64,000 nt of DNA from an uncultured bacterium (GCA_938038445.1 CALHRZ010000017.1:12065-76064), one strand, 5' to 3'; shown: positions 1-56,102, numbered from the stretch's first letter. Notes: generated from the sequence alone by a model not told the origin. Made by a program: numbers and translations.

Positions 1-1928
1 AGCGGGCCGGCATCAATCGGACACGGCTTGTTCGTGGACGAAACCCCCGCCCGCCCTTCGAGATCACTCGTCAGGGCCCGACCTTCCTCAGCCGTTGACA
101 CAACTCGGGGGGTAACAAAAACCAGAAGATTGGTGCGTTCCCGTCCGTCCGCCGTTCGCCGGAACAGCCTCCCGATTAGGGGGATGGCACTCAAAACCGG
201 AATCCGCCGTTCTGTACGGACCTGATCTTCACGGATCAAGCCGCTGAGCACAATCGTCTCGCCGTTGGCCACGGTGACGGTCGTCGAAACTTCACGCCGG
301 GCAATTGTCGGCGTAAAGGGAGTCCCTGAAGGACCGGGATCCACAATGGCCTCGATGCTGGGATTCAGGGTCATGCGAACCAAACCATCCGGGGTGATAT
401 GGGGTGTCAGTTTGAGCTTGATCCCCACATCCATACGCTCAATGTTTTGTATGACATCCCGAGCCGTTCCGGTCCCCGCTTGAATGGTGGACCGTAGGAT
501 GGGAATGTTGTTCACCACGCTCACACTGGCATCCCGATTGTTCTGCGCAAGCAGCGGCACGTTCGAGAGAATCTTGAACCGTCCTTCCTTCCGCAACGCC
601 TGAATGTTGACGAGCGCCGGAAGCGCCGTCTGAAGCGTACCGTCCGCTGCCAGGCGCATGCCCCGTGCAAGGCCGATCGTCAAGCCCTGGGGAAACAGCC
701 CCCCTTCGACGGCCCTCATAATGGCCTCGGCGGATTCATTAAGCATTCCGCTCCCCTGAAACGCATACCGCCCCACGTCGCCGGGCGCCCCTAATGCCGC
801 CCATTCCACGCCCCATTCGCCCCCCTCGCTGGCCGAGACTTCCGCAATCAGCACTTCGATCAAGACTTGACCGGGAAACTGATCCAATTGCCGGACAAGG
901 GCTTCCACCTGCTCGAAGTCGCGAGGGGCAGCGTCCACCAGCAGTGCATTGTTGGCCGGATTCGCTTCGAGAAACACAGCGCCGGTTGGCCCAGCTCCTT
1001 TCGGACTCGAGGCGGAGGCCGCCAGAAGCGCTTTCAGGCTGGCCGCCGCTTCCTCAGCCGGCAAATGCTTCAGAAAGATGGCACGCAGCCGTCCCCGCCC
1101 TGCTTCCGGCTCCGAATCCAAACGGGCCACAAGGGTTTTCATTTCCTCGACGGCCGCCCGAGATCCCACAAGGATCAACCCGTTAATCTGCGGCGCTGCG
1201 ACAGCCTTGACCGCCCCGGTTCGCTCTCCAGGCGCAATCTGGCGACGAATGCGATCCGCTTCGGTTTCCAGAACGGCCATGGCTTCCGTCAGTTGGCGGG
1301 CTGCCTCTTCGGCCGAAGCGTGCCGCAAAGGGACTACCTCGACAACCCGAGCCAGCCCTGGCCGGTCTACGTTCGCCGCAATCTGTTCGACTCGAATGAC
1401 CCAATCGGCCGGCCCGCCGGCCACCAACATGTTGGCCGACGGAAGAACTCCAACGTAGCCTTTCCTCTCGCCACCGCCCATTTCGTTCAGCGCATTGCGT
1501 AACTCCTGGGCAGGAATGTGTTCCAACCGAAAGACCTTGGTGACCCACCCCGCCCCCGCCGGAGACTCGTCGGGACCTGCCACACGCCCCAAGACGCCGG
1601 CGGCATCCGCACGCGCGGTCACACGCGTAAGGCCGTCTTCCCCCTCCCAGACCACGCACCCCGCCGATTCCAAAACAGCCGCCAAGAGAGGATATAAATC
1701 CCCCACCGGAACATTCGCGGCCGTCAGCGAAACCCGCCCCTTGATCCCTTCAGCCACCAGGATCCGCCGACCGATCATCTCCCCCATCGTCGTGACAAAT
1801 GCCGGAATTTCTACCCCTTCGAAATGAAGGTCCACGCGCCCTTCGTTCATGGTTTGGGCGGGCAACAACGCGATGAACGACAACAGATAGACTATACCCG
1901 CTGTTCCAGTGATCCGAACGCGTTTCAT
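1..1928 (-). CDS. Secretin (GspD/PilQ family; type II secretion / type IV pilus outer-membrane channel). The 3' end runs off the window start.
   Basis: I translated the minus strand by hand from the ATG at 1928..1926: MKRVRITGTAGIVYLLSFIALLPAQT (signal peptide), then an N0-like domain (VDLHFEGVEIPAFVTTMGEMIGRRILVAEGIKGRVSL), then the C-terminal secretin core (VPLLAQNNRDASVSVVNNIPIL...TVTVANGETIVLSGLIREDQ...IPVLSAIPLIGRLFRR...LLVFVTPRVV). No stop occurs before position 1, which is why it is missing from the ORF track. The start overlaps the lptF/G stop (TAATG). Confidence 0.75.
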   Translation of the reverse strand, partial: MKRVRITGTAGIVYLLSFIALLPAQTMNEGRVDLHFEGVEIPAFVTTMGEMIGRRILVAEGIKGRVSLTAANVPVGDLYPLLAAVLESAGCVVWEGEDGLTRVTARADAAGVLGRVAGPDESPAGAGWVTKVFRLEHIPAQELRNALNEMGGGERKGYVGVLPSANMLVAGGPADWVIRVEQIAANVDRPGLARVVEVVPLRHASAEEAARQLTEAMAVLETEADRIRRQIAPGERTGAVKAVAAPQINGLILVGSRAAVEEMKTLVARLDSEPEAGRGRLRAIFLKHLPAEEAAASLKALLAASASSPKGAGPTGAVFLEANPANNALLVDAAPRDFEQVEALVRQLDQFPGQVLIEVLIAEVSASEGGEWGVEWAALGAPGDVGRYAFQGSGMLNESAEAIMRAVEGGLFPQGLTIGLARGMRLAADGTLQTALPALVNIQALRKEGRFKILSNVPLLAQNNRDASVSVVNNIPILRSTIQAGTGTARDVIQNIERMDVGIKLKLTPHITPDGLVRMTLNPSIEAIVDPGPSGTPFTPTIARREVSTTVTVANGETIVLSGLIREDQVRTERRIPVLSAIPLIGRLFRRTADGRERTNLLVFVTPRVVSTAEEGRALTSDLEGRAGVSSTNKPCPIDAGP

Positions 1929-3001
1929 TAGTTCAACCGACGCATCAGCCATGTTCCCAGAATAAGAGAAACCAGAATGGGAAGCCAGACCAAAAGATGA
2001 GGCCGATATTCGGGATGATCGCCCAGGGACTTGGGAATAATGATCGCCATGTAAAAGAGAACAGCCACCAGAAGACTGAGGCCAAGACTGATCGAAGACT
2101 CCTTGCGGGGATTAAACACCGCAAGGGGAACGCCAAGTAGAACAAAAACCACCGCCGCCAGCGCCATGACTATCCGTTTATGGATTTCCACCAAAAGCCG
2201 GTAGCGGCGGAGCGGGGCGGCGGCGGTTGCCGCCATCTCCTCTACGATCTCCGTCAGCGTCAGGGTGGTGGGCTTCTTTTCATCCGAAAGGGTAGCGGTA
2301 CTTCGGATCGGAAGCCGAATCGGCCACCGCTGAACAAACCCACCAGCGGCTCCCCCTTCGAGGAAGGGCGTGATCTTGACCTCTCGCAGATCCATTTCAG
2401 CATAATCGCCTTCGGGAGAAAGAGCCAGGTGGCCCGAGCGCGCCTCGATCCGCCGCAGCGAACCGTTCCGAAGGGTCTGCAAAATCAGGACATCGTAAAT
2501 GGCATCCCCCTCCCGTTTCCCGATCCGGACGGAAAGGGTCGGCCCAAGCGCGATAAACTGGCCTTCTTCCAACAGGCTAAGGGCCAGCGAGGACCGCATC
2601 TGGGAGAGCAGTTCCCGCTGCCGTGTCTCAATGCGGGGCGCAATTTCGAAATTGACAGTCAACTCGACGGCGGCAAGAAACGCGCCAATCAGCATGGGCA
2701 TCCGGATCGCCTGCCAAAGGCTGATTCCGCAGGACTTCATCGCCGTCAGCTCCTGATCCCTGGCCAACCGGCCAAACAGTAAAAGAGTGGCCGTCAGCAG
2801 ACTTATCGGAATCGAAAAGGAAAGAAAAATCAGAAAGGAAAGCCCGAAAAACCGCACAATATCCTGAGAAGGAGCCCCCCGCGCCAGAAGATCGGTCAGT
2901 TTAAACAGGCTGAGCAGGGACATGACAAACGTCATCACGACGAGCACGGCCGCCACGGTCGCCAGAAAAGAGAGACCGATGTAACGTTGAAGAATTCGCA
3001 T
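1928..3001 (-). CDS. LptF/LptG family LPS export permease (YjgP/YjgQ)
   Basis: The 357-aa product begins at MRILQRYIGLSFL (ATG at 3001). It has multi-TM N- and C-terminal halves around a periplasmic beta-jellyroll-like middle, the typical LptF/G architecture. The ORF-track start at 3223 is a spurious N-terminal extension. Confidence 0.75.
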   Translation of the reverse strand: MRILQRYIGLSFLATVAAVLVVMTFVMSLLSLFKLTDLLARGAPSQDIVRFFGLSFLIFLSFSIPISLLTATLLLFGRLARDQELTAMKSCGISLWQAIRMPMLIGAFLAAVELTVNFEIAPRIETRQRELLSQMRSSLALSLLEEGQFIALGPTLSVRIGKREGDAIYDVLILQTLRNGSLRRIEARSGHLALSPEGDYAEMDLREVKITPFLEGGAAGGFVQRWPIRLPIRSTATLSDEKKPTTLTLTEIVEEMAATAAAPLRRYRLLVEIHKRIVMALAAVVFVLLGVPLAVFNPRKESSISLGLSLLVAVLFYMAIIIPKSLGDHPEYRPHLLVWLPILVSLILGTWLMRRLN

Positions 3002-3039
3002 AAATAAATTAACCGGGCCGCCGAAACCGTTTCCGGTCT

Positions 3040-4458
3040 TCAATACCGGTAATGGTCCGGCTTGAAAGGTCCGTCGGGCGACACACCGAGATAGACCGCC
3101 TGGCGGCGCGTGAGACGGTCCAGTTTCACACCCAATTGGGCCAGATGAAGCCGGGCCACCTCCTCGTCCAGACGTTTGGGGAGAACATAAACGCCGGGCG
3201 CATACTGGCCCCGCCGAGTCCAAAGTTCAATCTGAGCAAGGACCTGATTCGTGAAACTGTTGGACATGACAAAGCTCGGGTGCCCGGTCGCGCATCCCAG
3301 ATTAACCAACCGCCCCTGCGCCAACAGGATAATGCTTTTCCCATTCGGAAAGGTGATTTTATCCACTTGCGGTTTAATATTTTCCCAGCGGTATTTTCGG
3401 AGGCGCTCCACCTGGATCTCATCATCGAAGTGGCCAATGTTGCACACAATCGCCATGTCCTTCATGCGCCGCATGTGCCGCTCTGTGATGACGTCGCAAC
3501 AGCCCGTCGCCGTCACAAAAATATCTCCAATCCGGCAGGCTTCCTCCATCGGCATGATTTCATATCCCTCCATGGCGGCCTGAAGCGCGCAAATGGGATC
3601 AATCTCCGTGACGATGACTCGGGCACCCTGGCCGCGAAGCGCGGCGCAACAGCCTTTGCCGACATCCCCGTATCCCGCCACAACGGCGATTTTTCCTGCA
3701 ATCATAACGTCCGTCGCGCGGTTCAGACCATCTACGATGGAATGACGGCAGCCGTAGAGGTTGTCGAACTTGGATTTCGTGACCGAATCATTGACATTAA
3801 AGGCGGGAAATCGGAGCCGCTTTTCCCGGTGCATCTGCAGCAAACGCCGAACCCCCGTCGTGGTTTCTTCGGAAACGCCCACCAGTCGCGCCGCCATCCG
3901 ATGAAAACGGCCGGGATCGCGTTCGAGCACCGACCGAATCCGCTTCAAAAGGGCCGCTTCGTCCCCACCCCGGGGACGCCGTTGGAGTACGGCGGGATCC
4001 TCCTCCGCTTGGCAACCGAGATGGAGGAACAGCGTAGCATCCCCCCCGTCGTCCACAATGAGGTCAGGCCCCCCCTCGGCCCCCCAGTCTAGGGCGCGAT
4101 CGGTAAACTCCCAGTATTCATCCAGCGTCTCGCCCTTGCGGGCAAACACCGGAACCCCTTTGACGGCAAGAGCCGCCGCCGCATGATCCTGAGTGGAAAA
4201 GATGTTGCAGCTTGCCCATCGAACGCGAGCGCCCAACGCGAGAAGGGTCTCAATGAGAACAGCCGTCTGAATGGTCATGTGAAGCGAGCCGCTGATGTGC
4301 GCTCCCTTCAAAGGTTTCGCTCCCGCATAGCGGCGCCGGATCTCCATCAAACCGGGCATTTCCTTTTCCGCCCACGCGATCTCTCGGCGGCCCCATCCCG
4401 CCAGCTCGAGATCCGCCACCACATAATCCGCTATATCGCGCGTTCGCTTCGCACCCAT
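3040..4458 (-). CDS. ahcY: S-adenosyl-L-homocysteine hydrolase (adenosylhomocysteinase)
   Basis: Start is [27 protein letters not shown]. It carries the NAD-binding motif [19 protein letters not shown] and the tail [17 protein letters not shown]. The 472-aa length is typical. Confidence 0.9.
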
Positions 4459-17697: not shown

Positions 17698-18210
17698 ATG
17701 AAGAACAATCAAGAGAATACACCCGAACTGCCGGACCCCTCCTCTCTCGTGCGCTTCATGCAAATGGCCCTGCAGGAGGCCAAGGCGGCAGCGGAAGAAG
17801 GCGAGGTGCCGTGCGGCGCAGTGATCGTTTGGAGTGGCCGCATCATTGGACGTGCCCATAATCAAGTGGAAACCCTGCGCGACCCCACGGCACATGCCGA
17901 AATACTGGCCATCACGCAGGCCGCAGGAGCGATCGGTGACTGGCGGCTGGACGGGGCAGATCTTTACGTCACCAAAGAACCCTGTCCCATGTGTGCAGGC
18001 GCTCTCGTGCTCGCGCGCGTCCGACGGTTGATCTTCGGCGTGCGAGATCCGGTCCGCGGAGGAGCAGGGTCGGTATTTCCCATCGTGTCGCATCCGTCCT
18101 CCCCGCACCGACTGGAGATTTTGGAAGGCATCCTCGAAGCCGAATGCAAAGCAATCCTTCAGACCTTTTTCCGCCGCCGCCGCCAGGAAGAAAACGAAAG
18201 GCCCTCTTAG
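17698..18210 (+). CDS. tadA: tRNA-specific adenosine deaminase
   Basis: Start is MKNNQ (ATG at 17698, verified). The deaminase zinc motifs are HAEILA and PCPMCAGAL. The ORF-track start at 17407 is an extension over the ffs locus. Confidence 0.85.
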   Translation: MKNNQENTPELPDPSSLVRFMQMALQEAKAAAEEGEVPCGAVIVWSGRIIGRAHNQVETLRDPTAHAEILAITQAAGAIGDWRLDGADLYVTKEPCPMCAGALVLARVRRLIFGVRDPVRGGAGSVFPIVSHPSSPHRLEILEGILEAECKAILQTFFRRRRQEENERPS

Positions 18211-19700
18211 CCGAACCGAATGACAAACTCCTCCTCTTTCGAGGGTTCGGGCGGTTTCTCTTCAACCTTAATCGGCTGATAGGTCGGAAGAAACCGATAG
18301 TAAACGGTCAACATGAGGCAGTTGAGCGCCGTGCAATACACCGGACCGAAGATCGCTTCCGATGAGGCCGGGGCCGGCCCCCAGCTCCCATCAGGATTTT
18401 GCATCGCACAAAGGGTAGGCGCAAATTGACGGTTCCAGGTGACCCATGTCGTCCCGCCCTGATGAAACCGAGCCTGCGTCACGTAATACCAGGAATAGAT
18501 GGGCCAGGCTCCCATCTGCCGCAAATCGAGATTCGGCGTGGCCGGATCGGTTTTGGTCCAACGAAACGGCACGTTCTGAAGCGCGCGCACCCCCGCCCGG
18601 GCTTCCGCATCCATCGCATGCCCCGTCAACTGCATGCACAGAACCGCCACACCGGTCATAGGAACATTGGGCGCCGCATGCCGTTCCCGCGTGCTGTACC
18701 GGAAAAAACCGGAACTGTTGTCAAACAACACCGTCAATCCGCGTATGCCCGTATCAATGGCCGCCCGCAAACCCCGATTTTCCGCTCCCGCATTCAAAGC
18801 GGCTTCCAATGCCTGAAGATGCCAGCCCGCTAGAGAAACGTCCATATGAGCCTCGGGCCCCCGCGCATACCCATAGTCCCAACTGCCCCCCTCATGTTGC
18901 CCATCGAGAATCACCTGAACGGCATCTTCCATCGCGATGCGTAGGTAGGGAATCCCGGTCAGCGCGTAAGCCTCGCTGATCGCATACGTCGCGATGGCAT
19001 GCTCGTAACAGTGAATCTGAGACGGCGCCTGAGCGGGACCCCACTGCGGCCCGCCGGAACGGAACCACCCGTCCTTCTGAAGCCGCAGCAGATAGCGGAG
19101 CCCCCGTCGAATCGCATCGCCAAATTCCGGCGAAGCCGTCGTCTCGCCATGCGCAAGAAACGCCAGCAGGGCCAATCCCGTCATGCTGGCCCGATAGTGG
19201 GGCCCCCAACTGCCATCCGGATACTGATGATCGCGAAGCCATCGGAGCGCCTTGAGAACCGCAATCTCCGTCCGTTCCCCCAACCCGCCGCTGTACTTGG
19301 CCAGCCCTTCCGCTCGCCCGGCAGCGCTACGCCCCGCGATAATTCCGCGAAACTGAACGGGCGAAACAGACTCGAGCATGTTGAATTCCGAAAGATCCAT
19401 CGCCTCACCCGCCGTCCCCAGGACGTCGACAGCCGGTGGCTCCTGATCAAGACTCACGGTCGGCGGAGTCACCACATCTACAGTCTGGGGGAGATCCTCG
19501 AACTTTTGTAGCTCCTCGGTCAACTTTTCCAACTCCTCCATCGGAGTCGGCTCAATCACAATCGCCTCGATCCCCTCATCGGTTCGAGGACGTTCAAACT
19601 GCACGAAGGTCGCCAACAATAGGAGCACTATCAAGTGAATGACGATGGAACCGGTCGGCCCCCAGAGATTGTCGATAATGCGTCTGACTCTCCAGTCCAT
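18207..19700 (-). CDS. Membrane-anchored prenyltransferase/squalene-cyclase-repeat (alpha-alpha toroid) protein
   Basis: 497 aa. It has an N-terminal TM (IVIHLIVLLLLATFV), an acidic linker, and repeated QW-like motifs (YPDGSWG, NPDGSWG, HEGGSWDYG) typical of terpenoid-cyclase/prenyltransferase repeats. It lies last in the TPR-exbB-exbD-exbD module. Confidence 0.6.
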   Translation of the reverse strand: MDWRVRRIIDNLWGPTGSIVIHLIVLLLLATFVQFERPRTDEGIEAIVIEPTPMEELEKLTEELQKFEDLPQTVDVVTPPTVSLDQEPPAVDVLGTAGEAMDLSEFNMLESVSPVQFRGIIAGRSAAGRAEGLAKYSGGLGERTEIAVLKALRWLRDHQYPDGSWGPHYRASMTGLALLAFLAHGETTASPEFGDAIRRGLRYLLRLQKDGWFRSGGPQWGPAQAPSQIHCYEHAIATYAISEAYALTGIPYLRIAMEDAVQVILDGQHEGGSWDYGYARGPEAHMDVSLAGWHLQALEAALNAGAENRGLRAAIDTGIRGLTVLFDNSSGFFRYSTRERHAAPNVPMTGVAVLCMQLTGHAMDAEARAGVRALQNVPFRWTKTDPATPNLDLRQMGAWPIYSWYYVTQARFHQGGTTWVTWNRQFAPTLCAMQNPDGSWGPAPASSEAIFGPVYCTALNCLMLTVYYRFLPTYQPIKVEEKPPEPSKEEEFVIRFG

Positions 19701-19712
19701 GCGCGTCCCCCG

Positions 19713-20123
19713 TCAGTTCATGCTCCCTACGGAAATGTTGGTCAATTTGGAGCGGGCGCAAAGATCAAGCACTTCCACCAGTTCCCGGTGCCGCGAATCG
19801 ATCGAACAGAGGATCATAACCGTCTGTTTTGGGTTCAACGCACCCAGTTGGCCCAGAATCTTCGCCAGTCCCGTCATGTCCACTCCGGAACCGTTGATCA
19901 GAACACCGCCTGGAAAAATTTCGATCTTGATCATGGGCGGCGGAGGGGTTTCGCTTTCCTGAGGTTTGGCGGACGGACTGAACACGTCAAGATGAGCAAA
20001 AACATCCACGGGCCGAATGGTCAATACGAAATAGATGAGGAGTTGAAAGACGACGTCAATCATCGGCGTCATCGAAATCTCCCCCGACTCTTCGCTCTTG
20101 CGCCTTTTCCTGAAATCGGCCAT
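19713..20123 (-). CDS. ExbD/TolR family biopolymer transport protein
   Basis: 136 aa. The N-terminus MTPMIDVVFQLLIYFVLT is the canonical ExbD TM region with its conserved Asp. Confidence 0.8.
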   Translation of the reverse strand: MADFRKRRKSEESGEISMTPMIDVVFQLLIYFVLTIRPVDVFAHLDVFSPSAKPQESETPPPPMIKIEIFPGGVLINGSGVDMTGLAKILGQLGALNPKQTVMILCSIDSRHRELVEVLDLCARSKLTNISVGSMN

Positions 20124-20138
20124 TTCCCGTCCTCCCTT

Positions 20139-20561
20139 TTAATTCGAAGGCGCCTTTTCTTTCAATGCCACGAAGGATACGCGGTACAGCCCCGCCTTTC
20201 CCGCCGCCTGCATCGCCCGGCGGACGAACTCGTGACGTGTGGACTGGTGGGCCCGAATATGGACCGGCGTATCCTGCCGCCCAGCGATCCGGGCCTGGGT
20301 CAAAACCGTCACCAACCGCGCTTCAGAAAGGCGGTTTCGGGCAATGGAAATCGTACCGTCCTCATGCACCTCCACGTAAACCGTCCGCGGATCCCGTTTC
20401 TCGACGGTAGGCCCATGGGGCGAACGGGCCAGGACAATCGTTTCGTCGAAAGCCTGGCGGTCGAGCTCCACGGTCACTACAAAGAAAATGATGAGTTGGA
20501 AGACGATGTCAATCATCGGCGTCATGTTGACGCCAACCTCTTCGGTGGACCGTTTGGCCAT
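20139..20561 (-). CDS. ExbD/TolR family biopolymer transport protein
   Basis: 140 aa. The N-terminus is MTPMIDIVFQLIIFFVVT. It is a paralog of the adjacent exbD. Confidence 0.8.
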   Translation of the reverse strand: MAKRSTEEVGVNMTPMIDIVFQLIIFFVVTVELDRQAFDETIVLARSPHGPTVEKRDPRTVYVEVHEDGTISIARNRLSEARLVTVLTQARIAGRQDTPVHIRAHQSTRHEFVRRAMQAAGKAGLYRVSFVALKEKAPSN

Positions 20562-20601
20562 GACCGTCTCCCCTTCGGCACCCGATCGGGTGCGTTTTCA
20601 G

Positions 20602-21438
20602 TTACTCCTGAACAACCTCGACGTTCCGCAGCGTCTTGATGAGATCGTTCGTCAGGATCACCATGCTCAAAATGATGTTGTTGGCACGGTTGCGGAAAAA
20701 ATAAAAGAAAGCCACGGCGGGAACCGCCACCGAAAGACCGGCGGCCGTCGTGTAGAGCGCCTGGGAGATGTTCTGCGCAAGGAGCGCCTGCTGGGCGGCA
20801 CCGGCTTGCTGCGTTCCAAGGGTCGCAAACGCATAGATCATTCCTTGCACGGTTCCCAGAAGCCCCAGCATTGGGGCCAGGTTGGAGACAACGGAAAGAT
20901 AGGAAACCTTCTGAAGCAGCCTTTCGCTCTCCAAATCCGCAACCGCATTGATGGATTCCTGAATCACGTCGAATCCTTCTTCCACATTTTCAAACCCGGC
21001 GCGCAGAATGTTGGACAAAACCGTCGGCTCCTCCTTGCAGTACTCCAACGCCTTCCCAAGGTCCCCCTCATTCATCGCAGTCCTGACTTTCTCCAGAAGC
21101 GGAGCCGGCATGATCTTGCTCGGCCGGATTTTGACGAACGAATCGATAATCAGGTAGATGCCGGCCAGTGAAGTGGCGAAAAGGCCGGCCCAGAGGAGAA
21201 TTCCCAACGCGCCGCTCCCGGTCACCACATCCCAGAAGTTTGTGGCGCCTGCTTGCTGCTCTGCCTGCGTTTTGCGGGCGGCCGCCTCTTCCGCCGTCAT
21301 GGTTTCCTGGGCAAACGCCGATCCAGAACCGATGATGATCCAGCCTGCCGCGATGGCCGCCACGGCGGCCCGTTTCCACTGTCTGCTCATGGTGTCGACT
21401 CCTCGTTTCAACCGCTCAAGTCCGATGCTCGCCCGCAA
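20602..21438 (-). CDS. MotA/TolQ/ExbB proton-channel family protein
   Basis: A putative signal-peptide-like N-terminus is followed by three TMs and the conserved ExbB C-terminal region (APMLGLLGTVQGMIYAF...TTAAGLSVAVPAVAFFYFF). An alternative start is at 21390. Confidence 0.8.
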   Translation of the reverse strand: MRASIGLERLKRGVDTMSRQWKRAAVAAIAAGWIIIGSGSAFAQETMTAEEAAARKTQAEQQAGATNFWDVVTGSGALGILLWAGLFATSLAGIYLIIDSFVKIRPSKIMPAPLLEKVRTAMNEGDLGKALEYCKEEPTVLSNILRAGFENVEEGFDVIQESINAVADLESERLLQKVSYLSVVSNLAPMLGLLGTVQGMIYAFATLGTQQAGAAQQALLAQNISQALYTTAAGLSVAVPAVAFFYFFRNRANNIILSMVILTNDLIKTLRNVEVVQE

Positions 21439-25583: not shown

Positions 25584-27395
25584 TCATTTCGGAACCTCCC
25601 CGCCGAAATTGATCGCCATATACTGGGTAAAGGCATAATAGATGATGTTCACCCCCAGTTTGTAAGCCTGGCTGGCCACGGACTCGGAAGCGCCGGAATG
25701 GCCCGTCTTCCAGGCATCGTTGATATCCCCCTGGTGGTAGAATACAACCCAGCGCCCCTTGTACTTGACCCCCAGCGCTTCCTTGCCGGAGTGATGCCAA
25801 AGAGGGGGCGCTCCGTTGGGGAAATAAAAGGGATATTGGAAGATCACGTCATCCTTGGAAATCACGACCAGAGGAAGATCGGGAAAGACCCGCCGCAACA
25901 TTGTCCGGAAACTCCGGTCGAAATTCCCTCCCCCATTGTCCGCAAAGAGCATCCCTCCCATTTCCAGGCAATACTCCCGAAGAATGTTGACTTCCGACTG
26001 GGAGAGATTGATGCTCCCGCGCAACCCGCCGGTGATATAGACAAAAGGCGGAGCTCGATTCTTTGGAAAACGCTTCAACTGGTGGATGCGGATGGACTCC
26101 GTGTGAGGCCAGATGTCAAAACCGGTAAATTCCCGAAACTTGAGAAGCATGTTGTAATCGGCGCCAAATCCCATGTCCTGATCCCAGTCTCCCCCGTCGT
26201 ATTCCAGACGAATAAACCGGACCCTTGCCCGCTCCATTCCGTTCGGCCACCCCCCTTTCTTCCCGCCTCCCGCCCCGAGCTTGCCGAGCTGCTGCGCTTC
26301 GTAAGTCTGTTCGGTCTGGCGATCGATCTCTTCCAGCACCTCGCTGTCCTCGATGCGGGGTATATAAAAGGATATGGGCGCATTCAGGTTGATAATGAAC
26401 TTCTTTTCCGGCTTCTTCTGAATCCGCCGGACCTTGATCATCTCGATCATCGGCGTTCCGCTGCCTTGCGGAATCCCATACGGCAGTTCCATGCATCCCC
26501 ACCGAAACGCGATCAGGGGGAGAATAAAAATGAAGAAAAGGTGCAGCAGAGAGGAAAGATAGAGCGATTTCCTAAAGGGAGGATCCTCTCCGTGACGGCG
26601 GAGGTTGTCCCAAAGCCAGTCCGCCCAACCCGGTTGTTCCCCCTTCCGCCCGTACCAAGCGCCCGTCCGACAAAGCCATAGCGCCATGGTAAAAGCCGCC
26701 ACACCAACGATCCACGGCAGCACCCGTATCGTGCCCCAGGTCCAAAGTTCATTGCGTACCGTATTCCCATAAGCATCCGGTTGAAAGCGGCGGAGGAGCG
26801 AAGGAATCACCAGAACCCACCGCCAGATCAGGAGAAAGTAGAAAACCAGGGCAAGGGCAACCCCGCGCAGAAAAACAATCACCCCAGGGCGACGATAAAA
26901 CGACGCCAACGCCGCCAAAGGAAGAAGGACCATCAAAACGCCGGAAAAGACCGCCAGAACCCCATAGAACCCTCCCCAACTTTCCCACGGAAGGGTGTTC
27001 AGTGTCGGAACATCCATGTCCAGCAAATGGGCCAGCGCCGCCACGCCGTAACCGGTCACCCGAGAAGGAAGCCAGGCAACCCCAACGAAAAGAATCCCGA
27101 TCACGCACGGGGGAGTGACCCAACGAAGAGACTCCTCCCCAACCGTTCGACACCACGCCCGAAGACGAAGAAAAATTGGCGAAAAAAACCCTTGCAGCAG
27201 AATCGCGGTCCTAAGAGCGAGCTCACGTATCCTTCCCGCCAACGGACGAACTCGTACGGTCGCGAGAGAGAACAGGGCCATCAGGCCGTCATCCACCCGG
27301 CCTGGAAGACGCACCAAAGTCCGAATCGGACCGATGCGCCCGATTCGGTAGATCCATCTCCGCCCTTCGAACCTCACCCGGCCCCCCTTGATCAA
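25584..27395 (-). CDS. Polytopic membrane protein with C-terminal DUF4159-like domain
   Basis: 603 aa. The N-terminal half has many TMs. The C-terminal ~200 aa (VYITGGLRGSINLSQSEVNILREYCLEMGGMLFADNGGGNFDRSFRTMLRRVFPD...KGRWVVFYHQGDINDAW) resembles DUF4159. The match is from memory and not searched. An ATGA overlap joins it to the upstream gene. Confidence 0.55.
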   Translation of the reverse strand: MIKGGRVRFEGRRWIYRIGRIGPIRTLVRLPGRVDDGLMALFSLATVRVRPLAGRIRELALRTAILLQGFFSPIFLRLRAWCRTVGEESLRWVTPPCVIGILFVGVAWLPSRVTGYGVAALAHLLDMDVPTLNTLPWESWGGFYGVLAVFSGVLMVLLPLAALASFYRRPGVIVFLRGVALALVFYFLLIWRWVLVIPSLLRRFQPDAYGNTVRNELWTWGTIRVLPWIVGVAAFTMALWLCRTGAWYGRKGEQPGWADWLWDNLRRHGEDPPFRKSLYLSSLLHLFFIFILPLIAFRWGCMELPYGIPQGSGTPMIEMIKVRRIQKKPEKKFIINLNAPISFYIPRIEDSEVLEEIDRQTEQTYEAQQLGKLGAGGGKKGGWPNGMERARVRFIRLEYDGGDWDQDMGFGADYNMLLKFREFTGFDIWPHTESIRIHQLKRFPKNRAPPFVYITGGLRGSINLSQSEVNILREYCLEMGGMLFADNGGGNFDRSFRTMLRRVFPDLPLVVISKDDVIFQYPFYFPNGAPPLWHHSGKEALGVKYKGRWVVFYHQGDINDAWKTGHSGASESVASQAYKLGVNIIYYAFTQYMAINFGGEVPK

Positions 27396-28426
27396 AGCTT
27401 GAGTTCAATATCAGTAGGCCGGGGCGTTTCGCCCGGCACGGGAAGCGTCTCCCATTCCTGGGTGGACGAAGGAGCCACCGGCGAAGGCGGGGGAGACGTA
27501 GCCGGGGTCGCGGGAATCGGCGCCGTCACGGTGCCCGTTTCCGCGCCCGCCGAACCCGGCGGCGCTTGGGTGACCGATCCGCCCGTCGCAACCGCAGCTG
27601 TCGGAACTTCCGGTTCAGGTTCTTTCGGCCGGATGCGCCGATACAAATATCCCAAAGAGGTCAATCCGAGAACCACAAGATGTATCGCAACCGCCGCCCG
27701 CAAAAAGCGGGCAAACGAAACCTTGCGAAGATCGGACATGGCCACGTCCGCACGAGCGGCCTCCGATTCCCAGTCGATCTCACCCCCGCGCTTCAGAAGG
27801 TCCCGTTCTATGGCGGCGGCCGACACATTCTCCCCGGCAGGAGCCGACGCCCGTTCCCGGAGTTCTTGCTCGAGGCGAGTGATGACGGCTCGCGCCGCCT
27901 CAAGTTCAGCACGGGACTGCGCCGTCCATTCCAGCCGCTGCCGTTCCATGTCCTCCGCATGCCGGGTCTGAACAGACGCCAATTCCCGTTCCGCGCGCTC
28001 CAGACGCAAACGCGATGTCTCAAGCAAGGTTTCGAGTTCCTTGATGCGCTCGGACAACAAGCGAATTTCAGCCTCTTTCCGATCCAACCGTTCCTTCCAA
28101 ACCCGATCCTCACCTGAAACTGAAGAGGACGACAACGCGGAAACCGGAGGCGGAGCCGGCGCAGGCTCTTTCGTTTCCGGCGACGGTGAAAGGGGCGCGG
28201 CCGCAGATTTCGAAGGCTGCTCGGTCATCGCCGCATCCGCAGGAAATGACTTCACCGGCGCCGAAGGGGCAGGAGCTTCGCCCGACATGCGACCGGCAGG
28301 TTCCGTCTCGGTCGGAACAGGCGTCTTTTTGGCGCACCGGGGACAAAGAATGGTCTTTCCCGCAAAGGTTTTGAGCACTTTGAGGGCCGCCCCGCATCGA
28401 GCACAAGAAAAAGCAATCGTATTCAT
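27392..28426 (-). CDS. Zinc-ribbon / coiled-coil / single-TM / Pro-rich protein (candidate TonB/TolA-like coupling protein)
   Basis: Start is MNTIAFSCARCGAALKV...CPRCAKK (CxxC...CxxC zinc ribbon). A long heptad coiled coil follows (EIRLLSERIKELETLLETSRLRLERAERELASVQ), then one TM (AVAIHLVVLGLTSLGYLY), then a Pro/Thr/Ala-rich C-terminus. The ATG at 28426 is verified, and an ATGA overlap joins it to exbD. Confidence 0.55.
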   Translation of the reverse strand: MNTIAFSCARCGAALKVLKTFAGKTILCPRCAKKTPVPTETEPAGRMSGEAPAPSAPVKSFPADAAMTEQPSKSAAAPLSPSPETKEPAPAPPPVSALSSSSVSGEDRVWKERLDRKEAEIRLLSERIKELETLLETSRLRLERAERELASVQTRHAEDMERQRLEWTAQSRAELEAARAVITRLEQELRERASAPAGENVSAAAIERDLLKRGGEIDWESEAARADVAMSDLRKVSFARFLRAAVAIHLVVLGLTSLGYLYRRIRPKEPEPEVPTAAVATGGSVTQAPPGSAGAETGTVTAPIPATPATSPPPSPVAPSSTQEWETLPVPGETPRPTDIELKL

Positions 28427-33983: not shown

Positions 33984-36900
33984 TCAGTTTTCCGTCGCAA
34001 ACTTCCGGAACGCCTGATCGTTTTGAACCAGTTGCCCCCGGGCAAATTTCGCCCATTTACTCTCCGGATAATCCCACGTCAACCGTTTGAATGCGATATA
34101 GGCGTTCTTCATGTCCTGTGTCTTCAGGTAGCAGTCGCCGAGCCAGTACATCGCCTCCGCCCGAAGATCCTTGTCCTCGTACAACGCGAGAAGCCGCTCA
34201 AATTTGGCGATGGCTTCCGTTAGCCAGGACTTCGCTTTCTCATCGTACCGACCCTCCAAAACCGTCTTCCGTTCCTCCGCCCCCTTCATGTAGCTCTGGG
34301 CCGAAAGGAAGAGCGCTTTGGCCGCCAACTCGTGTTCCGGATTGCGGGACTGGAAGTTCCCAAAGATTTTGCCAGCAACCTCGTATTCTTTCGTACGATA
34401 AAAGTATTGCGCCAACCGGAGAATCGCATCGGAAACCAGAGGGCTGCGGGGATAGGCATACGTCAGTTCGACATAGGCATCGAGCGCATTGTCATTGTCC
34501 CCCATTCGCTCCAGACAGATCCCTTTCCGCAGCTGGGCTTTCGGTGCAAACTCGCTATCCGGCCAGTTGCTCAATACCTTGTTGTATCGCTCCAGCGCCT
34601 CTTCAAATTTCTCCAACTCCTGCGCCAGATTGCCGAGCAAAAATTCGGCATGGGGCGCATGAACCGTATCGGGATAATCCGCAATCGCCTCTTCCAAGAT
34701 CTGCTTGCCCTCCGCAATTTCTGCTTCGGCTTGAGATTTCTGCCCGGTTTCGCGATGTTCTTTGGCCAACTCGAACAATGCTTCGGCCATCAACAGGCGC
34801 GTTTTGACCGCAATGTCTTCGTTCGAGAACCGCTTGGTAAACGTTGCCAACCGCCCATCATCACCCATGAAAACCTGAACCTGAGCGGTCACGGCCCGCG
34901 GTTGAGTCGCAATCACGCTGACGGCATCTTGGTAAATCGCCGTGATCGTCTCCCCATATTCGACCGGAAGAACGCCCTCCTGAACGGCCCCAGAGCCTGC
35001 AAGTTCCGTCTTGATCCGCCCCGAAAAGACGCCGGAATGCGGCAGGGTTTCGGTCAAAACCATCGGAAATTCCCCCGCCTTGACGCGCAGACGAACCTCC
35101 ACCGGATCGAGTTCGTCCGTTTGATCCATATCCCGATCCATGAGCAGCAAATGGGCGTAATCCCCCACGAAAATCTGCCGTTCCGGCTCAAGATAGCGTC
35201 GGTCCATAAACCGCATGGAGGCATCGGTCGCAAGCGCAAACCAGCCCCGCGTCGCGGGTTCTTTCCGAACCGTAGGAATCACTACCCGCAACAGGTCAAC
35301 GCTCCGCATGTAAAAACGGGCCCGTCGAGCGTTGAGACGGCCCAGGGCCTCCTCCCGGCTGTCCTCCTCAACATATCCTGAGGAATCGCCAAGCCGCACG
35401 TCCACAAAGACCGAAAACTCCCCGTTCGTCGGGTCGCTCAACGTCATCGGAATCTCCTGATACGGAGGCCGCCTTCCCGCCGCTTCCGCCTCAGCGGCTT
35501 CCCGTTCGGTCGTCAGCCAAGCCACATGGGTGGATTTGGCGCCCAAAGCCGCCGCCGGATAGAGAACCCGGAAATGGACCGATGTGTCCATGCTTGTGAC
35601 CAGGGGCGCTTCGGGTCGTTGCCCCGCGCCCGCCGGGGCTGGACGGATCTGAACAACCGGACCCTTCTTTCCGGTCAGCCCTTCGTCGTCCCTCAAAAAT
35701 ACCGTTTGATAAAGGAGGAGTTCAGGAGGGTCCTGGGGAGCATCCGTGACCGAGGCGGTCCGGACAAGCTGTCCGTCGCTGCTTTCCTCGTCCCGGTACT
35801 CCAGGGTTACGGTGTCGCCCGAGGTCACCGCGATCGTGTCCCCTGCCGTCTGTCGGCCAAGACGAAGAATCGCGACAAAGACCCCAGAGTGAGGTTCCGT
35901 TTCGATCGCCTCCATTTCCAGAGACTCGCCCGAAGCCGTCGTAATCCACACGGGCACCTTGTCATGCTCCCGGCTCACATCGGCGTCATAGTCGGTGATG
36001 TGCACAACGAGCGATTCGGTCTCGCCCGTCCGAAACCGAAAGGCGGGATCATGTACGATCTCCCGTTCGCCTTTGGCATTCATCTCGATCGTTTCATAAG
36101 CAAACATCACTCGCGCATTGAAAAACCCGGATCGCAGCACCGCCGTCAAGCGGTTGTTGTCGCGTCGAATTCGACGTTCGTCCATATAAGAAATTTCGAT
36201 TCGGTCTCCCGGTCCGAGATGCAATACCCCGTCCGCCGCCCCCTTCAACCGTTCGGGCGGGAGAGGCAGAATGGCTTCGCCGCGCGGGCCAACAATGGTG
36301 GCCGTCCGAATGGCCACGTCGTTTCCTTCAAAACCGTCAAATACCCATCGAAGCTTCCGGACGGAAACAGGACGCGTGAAACGGGCCGTCGCCTTCTGCG
36401 ATTCCAACACCAGATGACCCGCGGGCGTCACGTCAACACTCTTCCAGCGAAATATTTGATCCCGGATGCGAACCGGCTTCTCCGTCTGCACCCGCGCGCC
36501 GAATTCGACACTCTCTTCCGGAGTCGGTCGGTTGAAGAGATGCCACTTGAGTACGACTCCTGGCGCCGCCGGCGGCACGGAGGGCATGGAAGCCAAGGGG
36601 TTGTTGGCTTTGTCCAGGACCGTCATGCTGGCTCCCCACGGTCCGCTGATCTGCGCCACCCGTAGTACGACGCCGTTCGTCCCCGCCTTCAATGAGCCCG
36701 TGACCGCATCCTCTTCGGGTTTCCAGATCCGCCCCGCCGGCCGACTATGGATCCGCTGGCCGTTCAGCCAAACCGTCACTCCATCACAACTGCCGATTTT
36801 GAAAACCGCCTCCTGGTCCGTTTCGCTGACGAGTTCCGTATAGAGAAAGGCCGCGGTGTTGCGCAGCGAACCAAAATGAGCGGCCAGATCCACGTAGCCA

Positions 36901-38567
36901 TAAACCTGCTCGCGGGATGGCTTCGTACTGAGAAGCGGCGTAAGCTTGTCGCCCGCCCCGCCCAACAACGTAAGATCGCGGACTGTGCCCCCGCCCGATA
37001 GATCCAACACTGCACTCCCGATCGGTTGGACGTTCATCAGATCCACCTCCCACCACGGCGGTTCACTGCCGCGAGATCCGCTCTTCCAGCCCGCCGATCC
37101 TGTAGCCAGGGGCCCGGCGGGATCCCGGCCGCTTGCCGTGTCGGATGCCGTCGCGCGGGGAGGCGACTTGGCCGTGGGAAGCTCACCGCGAAAGATCCCC
37201 GTATTGGGTCCCGTCTCTGTCAACCGCACCGGGTCAACCACATCCCCCGAGGAGGCGGCGGCACGCACTTCCACGGCATCGGGAGTTGGACTGACGCTCC
37301 GGTCATAGTCCACAACTTGAATGCGGATTGGATTGCCAGGACGAACCAGCCAGGGATCCCGTTCCCGCTCAAATGCGGCCATGGATTTTCCGTCCCGCTG
37401 CAGAAGAATCGCCATCCGTTGGCGAAGCAATGCCTCATCGCGCTGCTCGGCGCTCTGAAATTCCCCCGCTGTTGCGGTCAATTCCCCATCGGAAATCACG
37501 GCCATTTGTTTGGCCTCGTACTTCAGATTGTTCGCTTTTTGAAACGCTTCTTCAATTTGATATGCCACCGCATCGCCCCCCAATACCTGAAGCCGCAAGT
37601 CCCCCGGAACAGCCGGCCCGAGAACCGTGCTGATGGAGCCGCGGAACAAGGTCGGATCCCGCGGCGTAGGCAGGAGATTGAGCTTCTCTCGATCGCCTCC
37701 TTTGAGCGTCCGAATTTCGACCGGAATGCCTGCGCCCCCGCGAACAATCGCAAGATTCGGATCCTGCATCCTCATGGTAACAGGCCGGCCAGGTACCACG
37801 TATGAGGTCAGCACCCGTTCGCCGATTTCGAGTTCAGGATCCTGCAGACGGTCTTCGCGCAGATTGATTTCCGCTTCCAAAAAAATCGCCTCCACATGTT
37901 CGGGCACCCGTTTTTTTACCTCCAGCAGATTGGCCCTCGCCTCCGCATAATCCTCTCGATCAAAGGCAATCCGAGCCGCCAGAAAATACGCTTCCGCCTG
38001 AGCGGCCGCTTCCGGCGCATCCTTCAACCGCTCGATCAGCATGTCTGCGCCATCAAAGTCCCTTGTTAAGCGTAAAATGTCCACCACCCGAAATCTCGCG
38101 TGGCGTCCCGATTCGGTCAGGCGGAGATCCCGGTCCCGATCGAGACTTTCATACTCCAGTTTCGCCGCCGCATAATTTTGCTGATCCCGATACGTATCCC
38201 CCTTGATCAACCGCAGCCGAGCCGTCTGCTCCGGATTCATCCGCCGAGCAGCGAGCACCATATCGGCCACTGCGATCGCCTCTTTGTACTCTTTGTGCCG
38301 ACGATGCTGATCGGCAACCCAGATCACGAAGTCGCTGTCAAGCGAACTCCAGTGCTGCCGCAGCGTCTGCGCCTTGGGAAGATAGAGGTCCCATGCCCGC
38401 GCTTCCTGCCCCTCTTTGTAGGCCTGAGCCGCCGCTTTGAGCGCCTCAAGGGCGGAATCAGATGCTTGCTGCGCACGAACGGCGCTCAACGGAACAAGCA
38501 GCGAAATGATCGCCAGCGCGAGACTCCACGGTTTAGAACGGGAAGACGGGGGGCGGGAAACCATCAT
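33984..38567 (-). CDS. Giant secreted TPR-repeat protein (1527 aa) with internal beta-sandwich/jelly-roll-like regions
   Basis: It has a signal peptide (LALAIISLLVPLSAVRAQQ) and TPR arrays at both termini. The large central non-TPR segments include a ConA/LamG-like stretch (FKIGSCDGVTVWLNGQRIHS...). The ATG pair at 38567 and 38564 is verified. Confidence 0.65.
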   Translation of the reverse strand: MMVSRPPSSRSKPWSLALAIISLLVPLSAVRAQQASDSALEALKAAAQAYKEGQEARAWDLYLPKAQTLRQHWSSLDSDFVIWVADQHRRHKEYKEAIAVADMVLAARRMNPEQTARLRLIKGDTYRDQQNYAAAKLEYESLDRDRDLRLTESGRHARFRVVDILRLTRDFDGADMLIERLKDAPEAAAQAEAYFLAARIAFDREDYAEARANLLEVKKRVPEHVEAIFLEAEINLREDRLQDPELEIGERVLTSYVVPGRPVTMRMQDPNLAIVRGGAGIPVEIRTLKGGDREKLNLLPTPRDPTLFRGSISTVLGPAVPGDLRLQVLGGDAVAYQIEEAFQKANNLKYEAKQMAVISDGELTATAGEFQSAEQRDEALLRQRMAILLQRDGKSMAAFERERDPWLVRPGNPIRIQVVDYDRSVSPTPDAVEVRAAASSGDVVDPVRLTETGPNTGIFRGELPTAKSPPRATASDTASGRDPAGPLATGSAGWKSGSRGSEPPWWEVDLMNVQPIGSAVLDLSGGGTVRDLTLLGGAGDKLTPLLSTKPSREQVYGYVDLAAHFGSLRNTAAFLYTELVSETDQEAVFKIGSCDGVTVWLNGQRIHSRPAGRIWKPEEDAVTGSLKAGTNGVVLRVAQISGPWGASMTVLDKANNPLASMPSVPPAAPGVVLKWHLFNRPTPEESVEFGARVQTEKPVRIRDQIFRWKSVDVTPAGHLVLESQKATARFTRPVSVRKLRWVFDGFEGNDVAIRTATIVGPRGEAILPLPPERLKGAADGVLHLGPGDRIEISYMDERRIRRDNNRLTAVLRSGFFNARVMFAYETIEMNAKGEREIVHDPAFRFRTGETESLVVHITDYDADVSREHDKVPVWITTASGESLEMEAIETEPHSGVFVAILRLGRQTAGDTIAVTSGDTVTLEYRDEESSDGQLVRTASVTDAPQDPPELLLYQTVFLRDDEGLTGKKGPVVQIRPAPAGAGQRPEAPLVTSMDTSVHFRVLYPAAALGAKSTHVAWLTTEREAAEAEAAGRRPPYQEIPMTLSDPTNGEFSVFVDVRLGDSSGYVEEDSREEALGRLNARRARFYMRSVDLLRVVIPTVRKEPATRGWFALATDASMRFMDRRYLEPERQIFVGDYAHLLLMDRDMDQTDELDPVEVRLRVKAGEFPMVLTETLPHSGVFSGRIKTELAGSGAVQEGVLPVEYGETITAIYQDAVSVIATQPRAVTAQVQVFMGDDGRLATFTKRFSNEDIAVKTRLLMAEALFELAKEHRETGQKSQAEAEIAEGKQILEEAIADYPDTVHAPHAEFLLGNLAQELEKFEEALERYNKVLSNWPDSEFAPKAQLRKGICLERMGDNDNALDAYVELTYAYPRSPLVSDAILRLAQYFYRTKEYEVAGKIFGNFQSRNPEHELAAKALFLSAQSYMKGAEERKTVLEGRYDEKAKSWLTEAIAKFERLLALYEDKDLRAEAMYWLGDCYLKTQDMKNAYIAFKRLTWDYPESKWAKFARGQLVQNDQAFRKFATEN

Positions 38568-52857: not shown

Positions 52858-53270
52858 GAGGCGCTCGCAAGGGATTCGGCTAGAACGGCCTCGATCATCG
52901 CCTTGGTAAGGATCCCCTTGCCAACCTCACTGTAATCGGTCTGGAGCCCGAAATATTGATACAGCTTGCGGGAACCGCAAACGGGGTCCGGCTTCCCCGG
53001 CGAAGGATTCGGGACCGGCTCCATCCGGCCCGTCTGAGGGTCCCGCTTCAGGATCAAAAAGGCCGGAATTCTCTGGGGATTAAGACATTCCGCCTTGCAG
53101 AAGGCGACAATCCCTTCCTCCGTCTCGACATCCACATACTCTTTTTCGAACCGATCACGCCAATCCGGCCGGTTGAGTACGTCCTCCAAACGATCCTGAA
53201 GAATCTTGCATTTCGGGCAACCGGCTTTGCCGAAAACACGGATGACAAGCTTTCCATTCGTTCCCGTCAT
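52854..53270 (-). CDS. Glutaredoxin/NrdH-like thioredoxin-fold protein
   Basis: Start is MTGTNGKLVIRVFGKAGCPKCK (CxxC, ATG verified). The 138-aa gene sits between nrdD and nrdG, with ATGA overlaps to both. Confidence 0.65.
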   Translation of the reverse strand: MTGTNGKLVIRVFGKAGCPKCKILQDRLEDVLNRPDWRDRFEKEYVDVETEEGIVAFCKAECLNPQRIPAFLILKRDPQTGRMEPVPNPSPGKPDPVCGSRKLYQYFGLQTDYSEVGKGILTKAMIEAVLAESLASAS

Positions 53271-56029: not shown

Positions 56030-56102
56030 TGAAATCTCTCCACTTTGATCGCTTCCACCCTCTATCTCCTCCCAAATGAAACCCTCACTGTTATCTTCAA
56101 TA

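Follow-up and report, generated by a model that had tools for sequence, protein, structure and literature searches.

Proton-driven 5:2 motors of the ExbB/TolQ/MotA type power many processes of the bacterial envelope, and the job of each motor is set by the partner docked outside its pentamer. TonB and TolA are partners that transmit the force of such a motor in the inner membrane through the cell envelope. TonB and TolA bind their motors by a membrane helix that bears the pattern Ser-x3-His-x6-Leu-x3-Ser (SHLS), the Ser-His pair of which is the structurally conserved, motor-contacting part as seen by cryo-electron microscopy (PMC12215075). This pair touches a Ser and a Trp on transmembrane helix 1 of ExbB/TolQ, the Trp touches a Pro on transmembrane helix 3, and one TolQR motor takes two TolA helices (PMC12215075). 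In TonB, the D-box QPISVTMVTPAD is captured as a strand by the ExbD dimer (PMC10907165). The Agl-Glt gliding machine of Myxococcus xanthus pairs a TolQ-like pentamer with a TolR-like heterodimer (AglR5QS) and has two partners, GltG and GltJ, each with a single helix and an N-terminal domain in the cytoplasm (PMC11135422, PMC11761067). GltG has FHA domains, and in the structural model tetratricopeptide repeat (TPR) proteins bind the periplasmic parts of the partners, with a disordered segment of GltG wrapping a groove of the TPR protein GltD (PMC11761067). GltJ has a C4 zinc ribbon (residues 1-42 with C5, C8, C28 and C31), a 95-residue flexible linker, a GYF domain and a transmembrane helix that leads into a disordered segment in the periplasm, and its ribbon is a switch element (PMC11135422). 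Here, we describe a protein with a comparable layout from a 64,000-nucleotide stretch of DNA of an uncultured bacterium (GCA_938038445.1, CALHRZ010000017.1:12065-76064; the window). The 344-amino-acid protein, termed X, is encoded at 27392-28426 on the minus strand, between an exbB-exbD-exbD gene set and a gene for a DUF4159 membrane protein. X belongs to a previously unnamed and undescribed family that is widespread in bacteria of the PVC group (Planctomycetota, Verrucomicrobiota and relatives), and we propose with moderate confidence that it is a single-pass inner-membrane protein that serves as an accessory, TonB/TolA-like partner of a PVC-specific ExbB-ExbD1-ExbD2 motor.

The anatomy of X was derived from composition, hydropathy, a heptad count and an AlphaFold2 (AF2) model built on a 22-sequence family alignment (mean predicted local distance difference test score, pLDDT, of 74), and the four were concordant (Table 1). 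As stated in the original prediction, which had been made from this DNA alone, the start ATG (28426) shares the bases ATGA with the stop TGA of the preceding 135-amino-acid ExbD gene. The two genes upstream both encode ExbD (PF02472), and these are preceded by an ExbB/TolQ gene (PF01618). A 404-amino-acid version of the open reading frame (ORF), reaching to 28606, was rejected; it runs into ExbD2, and no homologue has the added residues. The N-terminal C4 ribbon (CARCGAAL...CPRCAKK) that had been recognised was modelled as four strands with a pLDDT of 89-94, and its cysteines are near-invariant. The linker behind it, of variable length across the family, is rich in Pro, Ala and Ser (14, 13 and 13 among the 67 residues 39-105). 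A heptad coiled coil of about 120 residues had been placed directly after the ribbon; a long helix is indeed present, but it comprises 92 residues, is separated from the ribbon by 64 residues of linker, and has hydrophobic heptad a/d positions only at about 110-152 and 175-189. The juxtamembrane segment contains a PDxLL-type motif that is found family-wide, in short as well as long forms of the protein, and is degenerate in X as RADVAMSDL. The only hydrophobic stretch (241-262) falls within the modelled helix 238-265, in line with the single transmembrane segment proposed earlier, and the helix contains the pattern A245-x3-H249-x6-T256-S257.

The C-terminal part is Pro/Thr/Ala-rich and lacks a folded domain, as had been predicted: the last 82 residues (263-344) include 18 Pro, 12 Thr and 10 Ala, and no folded domain was found in residues 266-344, all of which are disordered in the AF2 model. 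What the earlier description of this part had overlooked is a conserved motif of 21 residues at its end; its list of domains also lacked the first linker, the juxtamembrane segment and the invariant His249. The nearest homologue of X is 57% identical (E = 6e-110), and from the N- to the C-terminus the identity amounts to 97% in the ribbon, 33% in the linker, 71% in the long helix, 74% in the juxtamembrane segment, 71% in the transmembrane helix, 45% in the tail and 90% in the terminal motif. This uneven distribution argues that the ribbon, the helix, the membrane region and the terminal 21 residues are under selection, and that the two linkers are not. With such segment-wise conservation and 58 homologues, the ORF of X is a real gene.

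Neither Pfam nor NCBIfam contained a family for X, for which only sub-threshold matches to generic zinc ribbons were obtained, and the core of the short forms gave no Pfam match. Word-indexed searches with the X protein and with the family alignment gave just 2 and 6 matches, respectively, with low-complexity words filling the candidate list, and a search of representative genomes with the X protein alone gave none. The contig index had no entry for the exact X protein. An exhaustive HMMER profile search of 1.84 billion representative proteins yielded 26 proteins at E ≤ 1e-10; about 25 matches were full-length relatives of 300-440 amino acids, and many weaker ones covered the ribbon alone. In total, 58 members were collected, all located between an exbB-exbD-exbD set and a DUF4159 gene and with giant exported TPR proteins on the flanks. 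R243, H249, S257, P329 and P335 are invariant in the 22-sequence alignment, and C8, C11, C28, C31, L15, L185, T256, G259, L328, E333 and L342 are near-invariant; a conserved stretch of 7-10 columns does not occur in the family alignments.

Because the alignment of the X family was too variable for this purpose, the scan of genomes was anchored on the conserved DUF4159 neighbour. It gave 71 loci, annotated with custom hidden Markov models (HMMs), from Kiritimatiellia, Lentisphaerae, Verrucomicrobiota and Planctomycetota. An X-profile match lay directly upstream of the DUF4159 gene in 34 of these loci under a strict filter, and in two more (L015 and L040) that the filter missed. Within the DNA fetched, ExbB and two ExbD genes were found upstream in 31 of the 34 X-bearing loci, and the spacing between ExbD2 and X was usually 1-5 bases or a 4-base overlap. 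Five further metagenome loci, in which X is full-length and 27-57% identical to the window protein, have the gene order of the window: TPR proteins of ~1530, ~620 and ~730 residues, ExbB, ExbD, ExbD, X and DUF4159, with two of the five contigs ending before DUF4159. In every locus examined, X comes directly after exbB-exbD-exbD, and its position between ExbD2 and DUF4159 is constant in four PVC lineages at core identities of 15-45%.

This fixed slot has to be set against the view that X is functionally unrelated to the motor, a generic membrane-anchored scaffold (of RodZ, ZipA or anti-sigma type) sharing the operon. Scaffolds and anti-sigma factors often have this layout of a cytoplasmic domain, a single helix and a low-complexity tail in the periplasm, and significant homology to TonB or TolA is lacking, as this view would have it. 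It does not account for the constancy of the ExbD2-DUF4159 slot across four lineages; moreover, an invariant intramembrane His would be unexpected in a passive anchor, the operon holds no sigma-factor gene, and X has no HxxxCxxC motif. We consider such a scaffold quite improbable.

In a number of loci (L048-L077, from Verrucomicrobiales and Planctomycetia; e.g. L052 9096-9545, L062 9023-9493 and L049 8911-9435), a different protein of ~150 amino acids occupies the slot between ExbD2 and DUF4159. It has an ELREF..MRGKSPQEMLG N-terminus, one helix without His, a Pro/Ala/Ser tail and a C-terminal NPLD..DDLLK.L, and appears to be an analogue of X with another signature. Several lake metagenome bins labelled Akkermansia muciniphila or Prosthecobacter debontii (including L055 and L062) carry exbB-exbD-exbD-slot-DUF4159, and a locus labelled Anaerovoracaceae (Firmicutes; L031, CAVGIZ010000129.1) has a PVC-type module and is probably mis-binned.

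The majority of the genomic members are short (135-165 amino acids, ~145; e.g. PLPPKKEFEYGDDLSLD) and consist of ~25 N-terminal residues with the PDxLL motif, the helix, the tail and the C-terminal motif, with a conserved YG-x-[HK]-SPS-x-I segment just after the helix. A ribbon without the long helix was found in three loci (L016, L043, L044), and ribbon plus long helix in L012, L014 and L039, the clade nearest the window; P0004 and L012 (3306-4631) have two tandem ribbons. From this distribution, the core of the family is the helix, the tail and the terminal motif, to which ribbon and long helix were added in particular lineages. By itself, the ribbon matches many other, unrelated proteins, in up to eight repeated stretches, which marks it as a mobile module. 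Irrespective of form, the C-terminal motif stands at the extreme C-terminus. The tail contains 5% Pro and 54% Lys, Glu and Ala in the short forms and 18% Pro in the long forms, with the terminal motif kept; the middle domains of TolA and TonB show the same compositional dichotomy (PMC12204202). In 57 members, 94 ± 10 residues separate the helix from the C-terminus. Some 79 fully extended residues would reach ~240 Å at most, and the Lys/Glu/Ala tails of the short forms, as helices, ~150 Å; a periplasmic target is therefore likelier than one in the outer membrane. X has all features that define the family, namely the PDxLL-type motif, the [S/A]-x3-H-x6-TS helix, the tail of ~94 amino acids, an end of the LPxPGExP...V-x-L-D-L type and the exbD2-DUF4159 slot.

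Export of a 237-residue, highly charged N-terminal region that carries a Cys4-zinc site and no signal peptide is mechanistically implausible. Since X has such a region, with 17 Arg and 19 Glu in residues 106-195, its orientation is very probably N-in/C-out with the tail on the periplasmic side, the only plausible topology and the one originally assumed. Over the family, the flanks of the helix have net charges of +1.0 N-terminally and 0.0 C-terminally, a weak vote for the same orientation. The balanced flank charges of X itself would suit the reverse, a cytoplasmic tail, which is at odds with both the N-terminal region and the family-wide flank charges; this orientation, or an ORF that is no gene at all in spite of its conservation, is extremely improbable. 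In the N-in/C-out orientation, the Ser/Ala-His pair comes to lie at the helix end that faces the cytoplasm, where TonB and TolA have theirs.

The His of the helix is invariant in all 58 members; the residue at -4 is Ser in 41 and Ala in 17, X itself having Ala245, and Thr-Ser follows at +7/+8. A 48-column profile of the helix region registers S18/H22 of Escherichia coli TolA and S16/H20 of E. coli TonB (sequences checked against PDB chains 9k49_H and 9ddo_F) with the Ser/His columns of the family. Among 1000 control permutations of the helix residues only, 14 and 28 scored as high for TolA and TonB, respectively. The helices of the DUF4159 protein (SSLLH) and of a 497-amino-acid protein encoded farther downstream (SIVIH) align likewise, with 13 and 26 of 1000 controls as high. 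On the side of the motor, ExbB of the window shares 32% identity with E. coli TolQ (sequence verified against 8odt_A) and retains Ser28 and Pro187 of the contact network as well as the pore residues Thr145 and Thr178. The likeness extends to architecture: as in TonB and TolA, the gene of X is encoded with an ExbB/TolQ-ExbD/TolR motor, the protein would have one helix with its N-terminus in the cytoplasm and a Ser/Ala-x3-His near the cytoplasmic end of that helix, and an extended low-complexity region comes next, which is Pro-rich in X as in TonB and rich in Lys, Glu and Ala in the short forms as in TolA. The differences are equally clear. The X helix is not N-terminal but preceded by 237 cytoplasmic residues versus about 10 in TonB/TolA; the second half of the SHLS motif deviates, with Thr-Ser at +7/+8 versus Leu at +7 and Ser at +11; and a conserved 21-residue peptide replaces the globular C-terminal domain. 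No match to TonB_C or a TolA domain in X was obtained from Pfam/NCBIfam; TolA domain III is missing, and the cluster scan revealed no tol-pal neighbourhood.

Several observations weigh against the proposal that X is a TonB/TolA-like motor partner. Trp32 of TolQ, a residue of the contact network, is Leu in the window ExbB, and X itself has Ala rather than Ser at -4 from the His. Neither in sequence nor in fold was X found to be significantly similar to TonB, TolA or GltJ. A D-box or motor box, which TonB and TolA have, was not found: in the long forms, none of the 20 positions past the helix is conserved. With four Lys/Arg on each side of the helix, the flank charges leave the topology of X unsettled, and in the Myxococcus model the GltJ helix is not confidently placed on the motor (PMC11761067). 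A search of the PDB with the 48-column profile retrieved no TonB or TolA chain, its top match being a light-harvesting helix (E = 2.8). At the level of sequence, the resemblance of X to TonB and TolA is one of motif, architecture and gene context, and homology is not demonstrable; the tie of X to ExbB-ExbD is shown by gene adjacency and the start/stop overlap.

The original prediction had gone further and suggested a TonB/TolA surrogate. In its strict form, X would be a complete force transducer, a TonB without head, the tail of which is pulled by the motor and the C-terminal peptide of which is the working end by strand addition. The S/A-x3-H helix, the position after exbB-exbD-exbD and the near-constant tail length are consistent with this, and the C-terminal motif resembles the D-box of TonB. 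There is also a precedent for TonB-like proteins without TonB head in SjdR of Anabaena (formerly TonB1), which shares with X the TonB-like annotation, one helix and a Pro/Ser/Thr-rich periplasmic part without TonB C-terminal domain (PMC8262864). Compared by description only, SjdR differs from X in being short, in lacking a zinc ribbon or long helix and in its role in septal structure, and adjacency to a DUF4159 gene or to TPR proteins is not reported for it. On the other hand, the estimated reach of the tail makes contact with the outer membrane doubtful, the long forms have no D-box beside the helix, and in the adjoining DUF4159 protein a helix is joined to a folded domain by a 90-residue linker, in which strand-like segments are highly conserved. 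Anchor, spacer and motor context of the proposed surrogate stand, but homology to TonB/TolA cannot be demonstrated and the DUF4159 neighbour fits a transducer better; we regard X as a complete transducer as unlikely.

The DUF4159 protein was modelled with AF2 on 30 sequences (mean pLDDT 74). Several N-terminal helices were followed by a membrane helix (272-297) with S281 and H285 in S-x3-H spacing, the His being conserved in ≥90% of the sequences. Segment 310-389 is disordered in the model and very highly conserved, with the strand-like runs IKVRKIQKKPEKKFI-NLNAPISFY-PKIEDS. The alpha/beta domain (390-600) matches PDB 4i66, an uncharacterised Haliangium protein (E = 5.6e-9), as the sole significant fold match. 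In the model, the DUF4159 protein has the full helix-linker-head layout of a force transducer and would fit this role better than X; X itself is probably not the sole or main transducer of the motor. Since one TolQR motor accommodates two TolA helices, X and the DUF4159 protein could share a single motor. Transducers in which an SHLS helix and a linker of ~100 residues lead to a non-TonB head, termed vWA-like, have been described beside TPR-tolQ-tolR-tolR genes in PVC bacteria (Tichowtungia and others), and a small head-less partner or zinc-ribbon form is not mentioned there (PMC12204202). X differs from these in having neither the folded vWA-type head nor the motor box. The fold search did not identify the DUF4159 domain as one of the vWA-head family, 4i66 being its only significant match. 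For the start codon of the DUF4159 gene there are two candidates, the TTG at 27395 and, 38 residues further on, a Met that begins the database copy P0153, and some DUF4159 homologues (P0261, P0264) have N-terminal FHA domains.

The GltJ/GltG pair is the closest analogue of X and the DUF4159 protein, an analogy of layout and setting. GltJ and X share an N-terminal cytoplasmic C4 ribbon of ~40 residues, a long flexible linker, one helix and a long disordered periplasmic segment. Both systems combine a TolQ-like pentamer with two unlike TolR-like subunits and large periplasmic TPR proteins, on the side of X as known from the genes alone, and in both a second helix protein stands alongside, with FHA domains in GltG and in some DUF4159 homologues. 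X has no match to a GYF domain, in place of which it contains the 92-residue helix, and no TonB-like C-terminal domain; its host is a PVC bacterium instead of a myxobacterium, and no link to MglA/MglB is known for X. The ribbons themselves show no specific similarity: that of ZitP (2nb9) ranked 12th with E = 1.3, and that of GltJ lay outside the top 50. In ZitP of Caulobacter, too, a zinc ribbon at the N-terminus precedes a membrane helix (PMC11135422), but ZitP differs in its periplasmic DUF3426 domain, its binding to PopZ and the lack of a motor context.

Homology to an unrelated zinc-finger family, an outcome that the original prediction had named as speaking against it, was looked for. No specific family emerged for the ribbon: the PDB sequence search (best E = 0.08) and Foldseek with the whole model (best E = 0.18) gave small, generic zinc ribbons, without significance. 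The scores for FmdB/Zn_ribbon_8 remained far from the cut-offs (PF09723, 16.5 versus 34.4 bits; TIGR02605, 18.9 versus 31.3 bits). DnaJ-like and FtsK-like zinc fingers were rejected, their motifs being absent. An anti-sigma zinc factor was rejected as well: the ribbon is of the CxxC...CxxC type without His, has no H-x3-C-x2-C, and no sigma-factor gene occurs in the 20-kb co-directional cluster to which X belongs.

The switch function of the GltJ ribbon (PMC11135422) lends itself to another reading, in which X occupies a TonB-type site on ExbB and regulates or assembles the motor instead of transmitting force. Its C-terminal strand would fold back onto the periplasmic ExbD dimer as a tethered pseudo-D-box and keep the motor in one state, as set by ribbon and helix. 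The D-box-like chemistry of the terminal motif and a tail long enough for looping back would allow this, and the variable cytoplasmic modules (none, ribbon, ribbon plus helix, two ribbons) are typical of regulatory inputs. The D-box of TonB/TolA, however, lies 10-25 residues past the helix versus about 65-100 for the motif of X, and a constant tail length suits a spacer more than a loop. We hold a regulator of this kind to be distinctly unlikely.

In the accessory-partner model that we favour, the X helix would dock outside the ExbB pentamer via its [Ser/Ala]-x3-His face, as do TonB and TolA, and the periplasmic tail would serve as a spacer of roughly fixed length. The C-terminal peptide would be a binding end that probably adds a strand to, or fills a groove of, a periplasmic partner, for which a large exported TPR protein of the operon, the DUF4159 domain and the ExbD dimer are candidates; the AF2 model is of a monomer and carries no information on partners. 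On the cytoplasmic side, the ribbon on its flexible linker and the 92-residue helix may provide a handle for self-association or for another factor. By analogy with GltJ and GltG on AglRQS, a single motor would carry X and the DUF4159 protein as a set of two partners. It is conceivable, as a more speculative extension, that PVC bacteria without recognisable TonB/TolA use such a set on a hetero-ExbD motor as a counterpart of the Agl-Glt core, with a headed DUF4159 protein and a head-less X that docks on giant periplasmic TPR scaffolds by its short C-terminal peptide, and with ribbon and helix, in some lineages, letting a cytoplasmic factor position or gate the machine.

On this interpretation, the X family would represent a head-less type of partner for 5:2 motors that ends in a short peptide and occurs with or without a cytoplasmic ribbon-helix module. 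Throughout a superphylum where canonical TonB/TolA often escape recognition, it is invariably paired with the head-bearing DUF4159 protein and large TPR proteins. A gene of many PVC genomes that has had no name can be annotated by the invariant His, the Thr-Ser at +7/+8 and the motif at the end of its product. The family also suggests, on the model of GltJ/GltG, a route from a cytoplasmic signal to a machine in the periplasm. The mucin utilisation locus MUL1 of Akkermansia (Amuc_0543-0550, with mul1A = Amuc_0544) may be the same TPR-ExbB-ExbD-ExbD-small protein-DUF4159 module; if this identity is true, a phenotype for the module already exists, the loss of mucin uptake published for transposon mutants.

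Table 1. Segments of X and neighbouring gene products in the window. Positions are counted from the first nucleotide of the window.
Feature	Position	Strand	Evidence and remarks
X, whole coding sequence, 344 aa	27392..28426	-	ORF and translation; stop codon 27392-27394
X, C4 zinc ribbon, residues 1-38	28313..28426	-	C8, C11, C28, C31; probably cytoplasmic
X, disordered Pro/Ala/Ser-rich linker, residues 39-102 (64 residues)	28121..28312	-	pLDDT 41-55; probably cytoplasmic
X, long helix, residues 103-194 (92 residues)	27845..28120	-	one AF2 helix, pLDDT 97-98; probably cytoplasmic
X, conserved juxtamembrane segment, residues 195-237 (43 residues)	27716..27844	-	AF2 helices 203-214 and 219-235
X, transmembrane helix, residues 238-265	27632..27715	-	hydropathy 241-262; AF2 pLDDT 93-95
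X, Pro/Thr/Ala-rich disordered tail, residues 266-323	27458..27631	-	composition; pLDDT <50; putative periplasmic spacer
X, conserved C-terminal motif, residues 324-344 (21 residues)	27395..27457	-	EWETLPVPGETPRPTDIELKL; pattern EWETLPxPGETPxPTDIELKL
ExbD paralogue 2, 135 aa	28423..28830	-	PF02472, E = 1.3e-16; transmembrane Asp kept (FGDIAFQLIIFF)
ExbD paralogue 1, 157 aa	28827..29300	-	PF02472, E = 1.6e-18; transmembrane Asp kept (FADVAFLLIIFF)
ExbB/TolQ-type proton-channel subunit, 212 aa	29318..29956	-	PF01618, E = 1e-29; TolQ model E = 9e-37
DUF4159 membrane protein, 603 aa	25584..27395	-	PF13709, E = 1e-30; directly downstream of X
Three exported TPR proteins upstream, 741, 629 and 1527 aa	29974..38567	-	TPR and YbgF-like matches; signal-like N-termini
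Two exported TPR proteins downstream, 1091 and 269 aa	21441..25522	-	TPR and YbgF-like matches; same order in L001-L005

X and the motor genes are part of a cluster of 14 genes on one strand with gaps of a few bases (~20 kb; 18.2-38.6 kb). A scan of the cluster for promoters and terminators gave the same counts as shuffled sequence, and no match to TolB or Pal was obtained among its ORFs scanned against Pfam/NCBIfam. The upstream TPR proteins hold the same positions in the five loci obtained via X homologues. In the largest of them (1527 amino acids, 33984-38567, minus strand), the TPR repeats are confined to about the last 250 residues; a weak F5/8 type C (galactose-binding-like) signal was observed at residues 472-526, and most of its length is without a recognised domain.

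A second motor set is located at 18207-21438 on the minus strand and comprises an ExbB (278 amino acids), two ExbD genes and then the 497-amino-acid protein. The ExbB and ExbD genes of this set were recognised only by reading of the sequence and by custom HMMs. In the 497-amino-acid protein, the helix GSIVIHLIVLLLL (Ser-x3-His) at the N-terminus is followed by a Glu/Pro-rich linker and a domain of DGSWG repeats, for which weak squalene-cyclase-like matches were obtained. It has the look of a further non-canonical motor partner, here with an alpha/alpha toroid as head. The arrangement of a second ExbB-ExbD-ExbD set followed by this protein is also present in L001-L004.

Elsewhere in the window, housekeeping genes for LptF/G, MetK, AdoHcy hydrolase, PtsI, NrdD and DnaX were identified, among them the anaerobic ribonucleotide reductase NrdD at 53267-56227 and the LptF/LptG permease at 1928-3223 (minus strand). 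From this set, the window is chromosomal DNA of a diderm bacterium, probably an anaerobe; it points to a lipopolysaccharide-bearing diderm as host, with a probably anaerobic way of life. The closest genomic relatives of the DUF4159 protein (55-59% identity) are from Kiritimatiellia, unclassified Verrucomicrobiota and one Victivallales bin.

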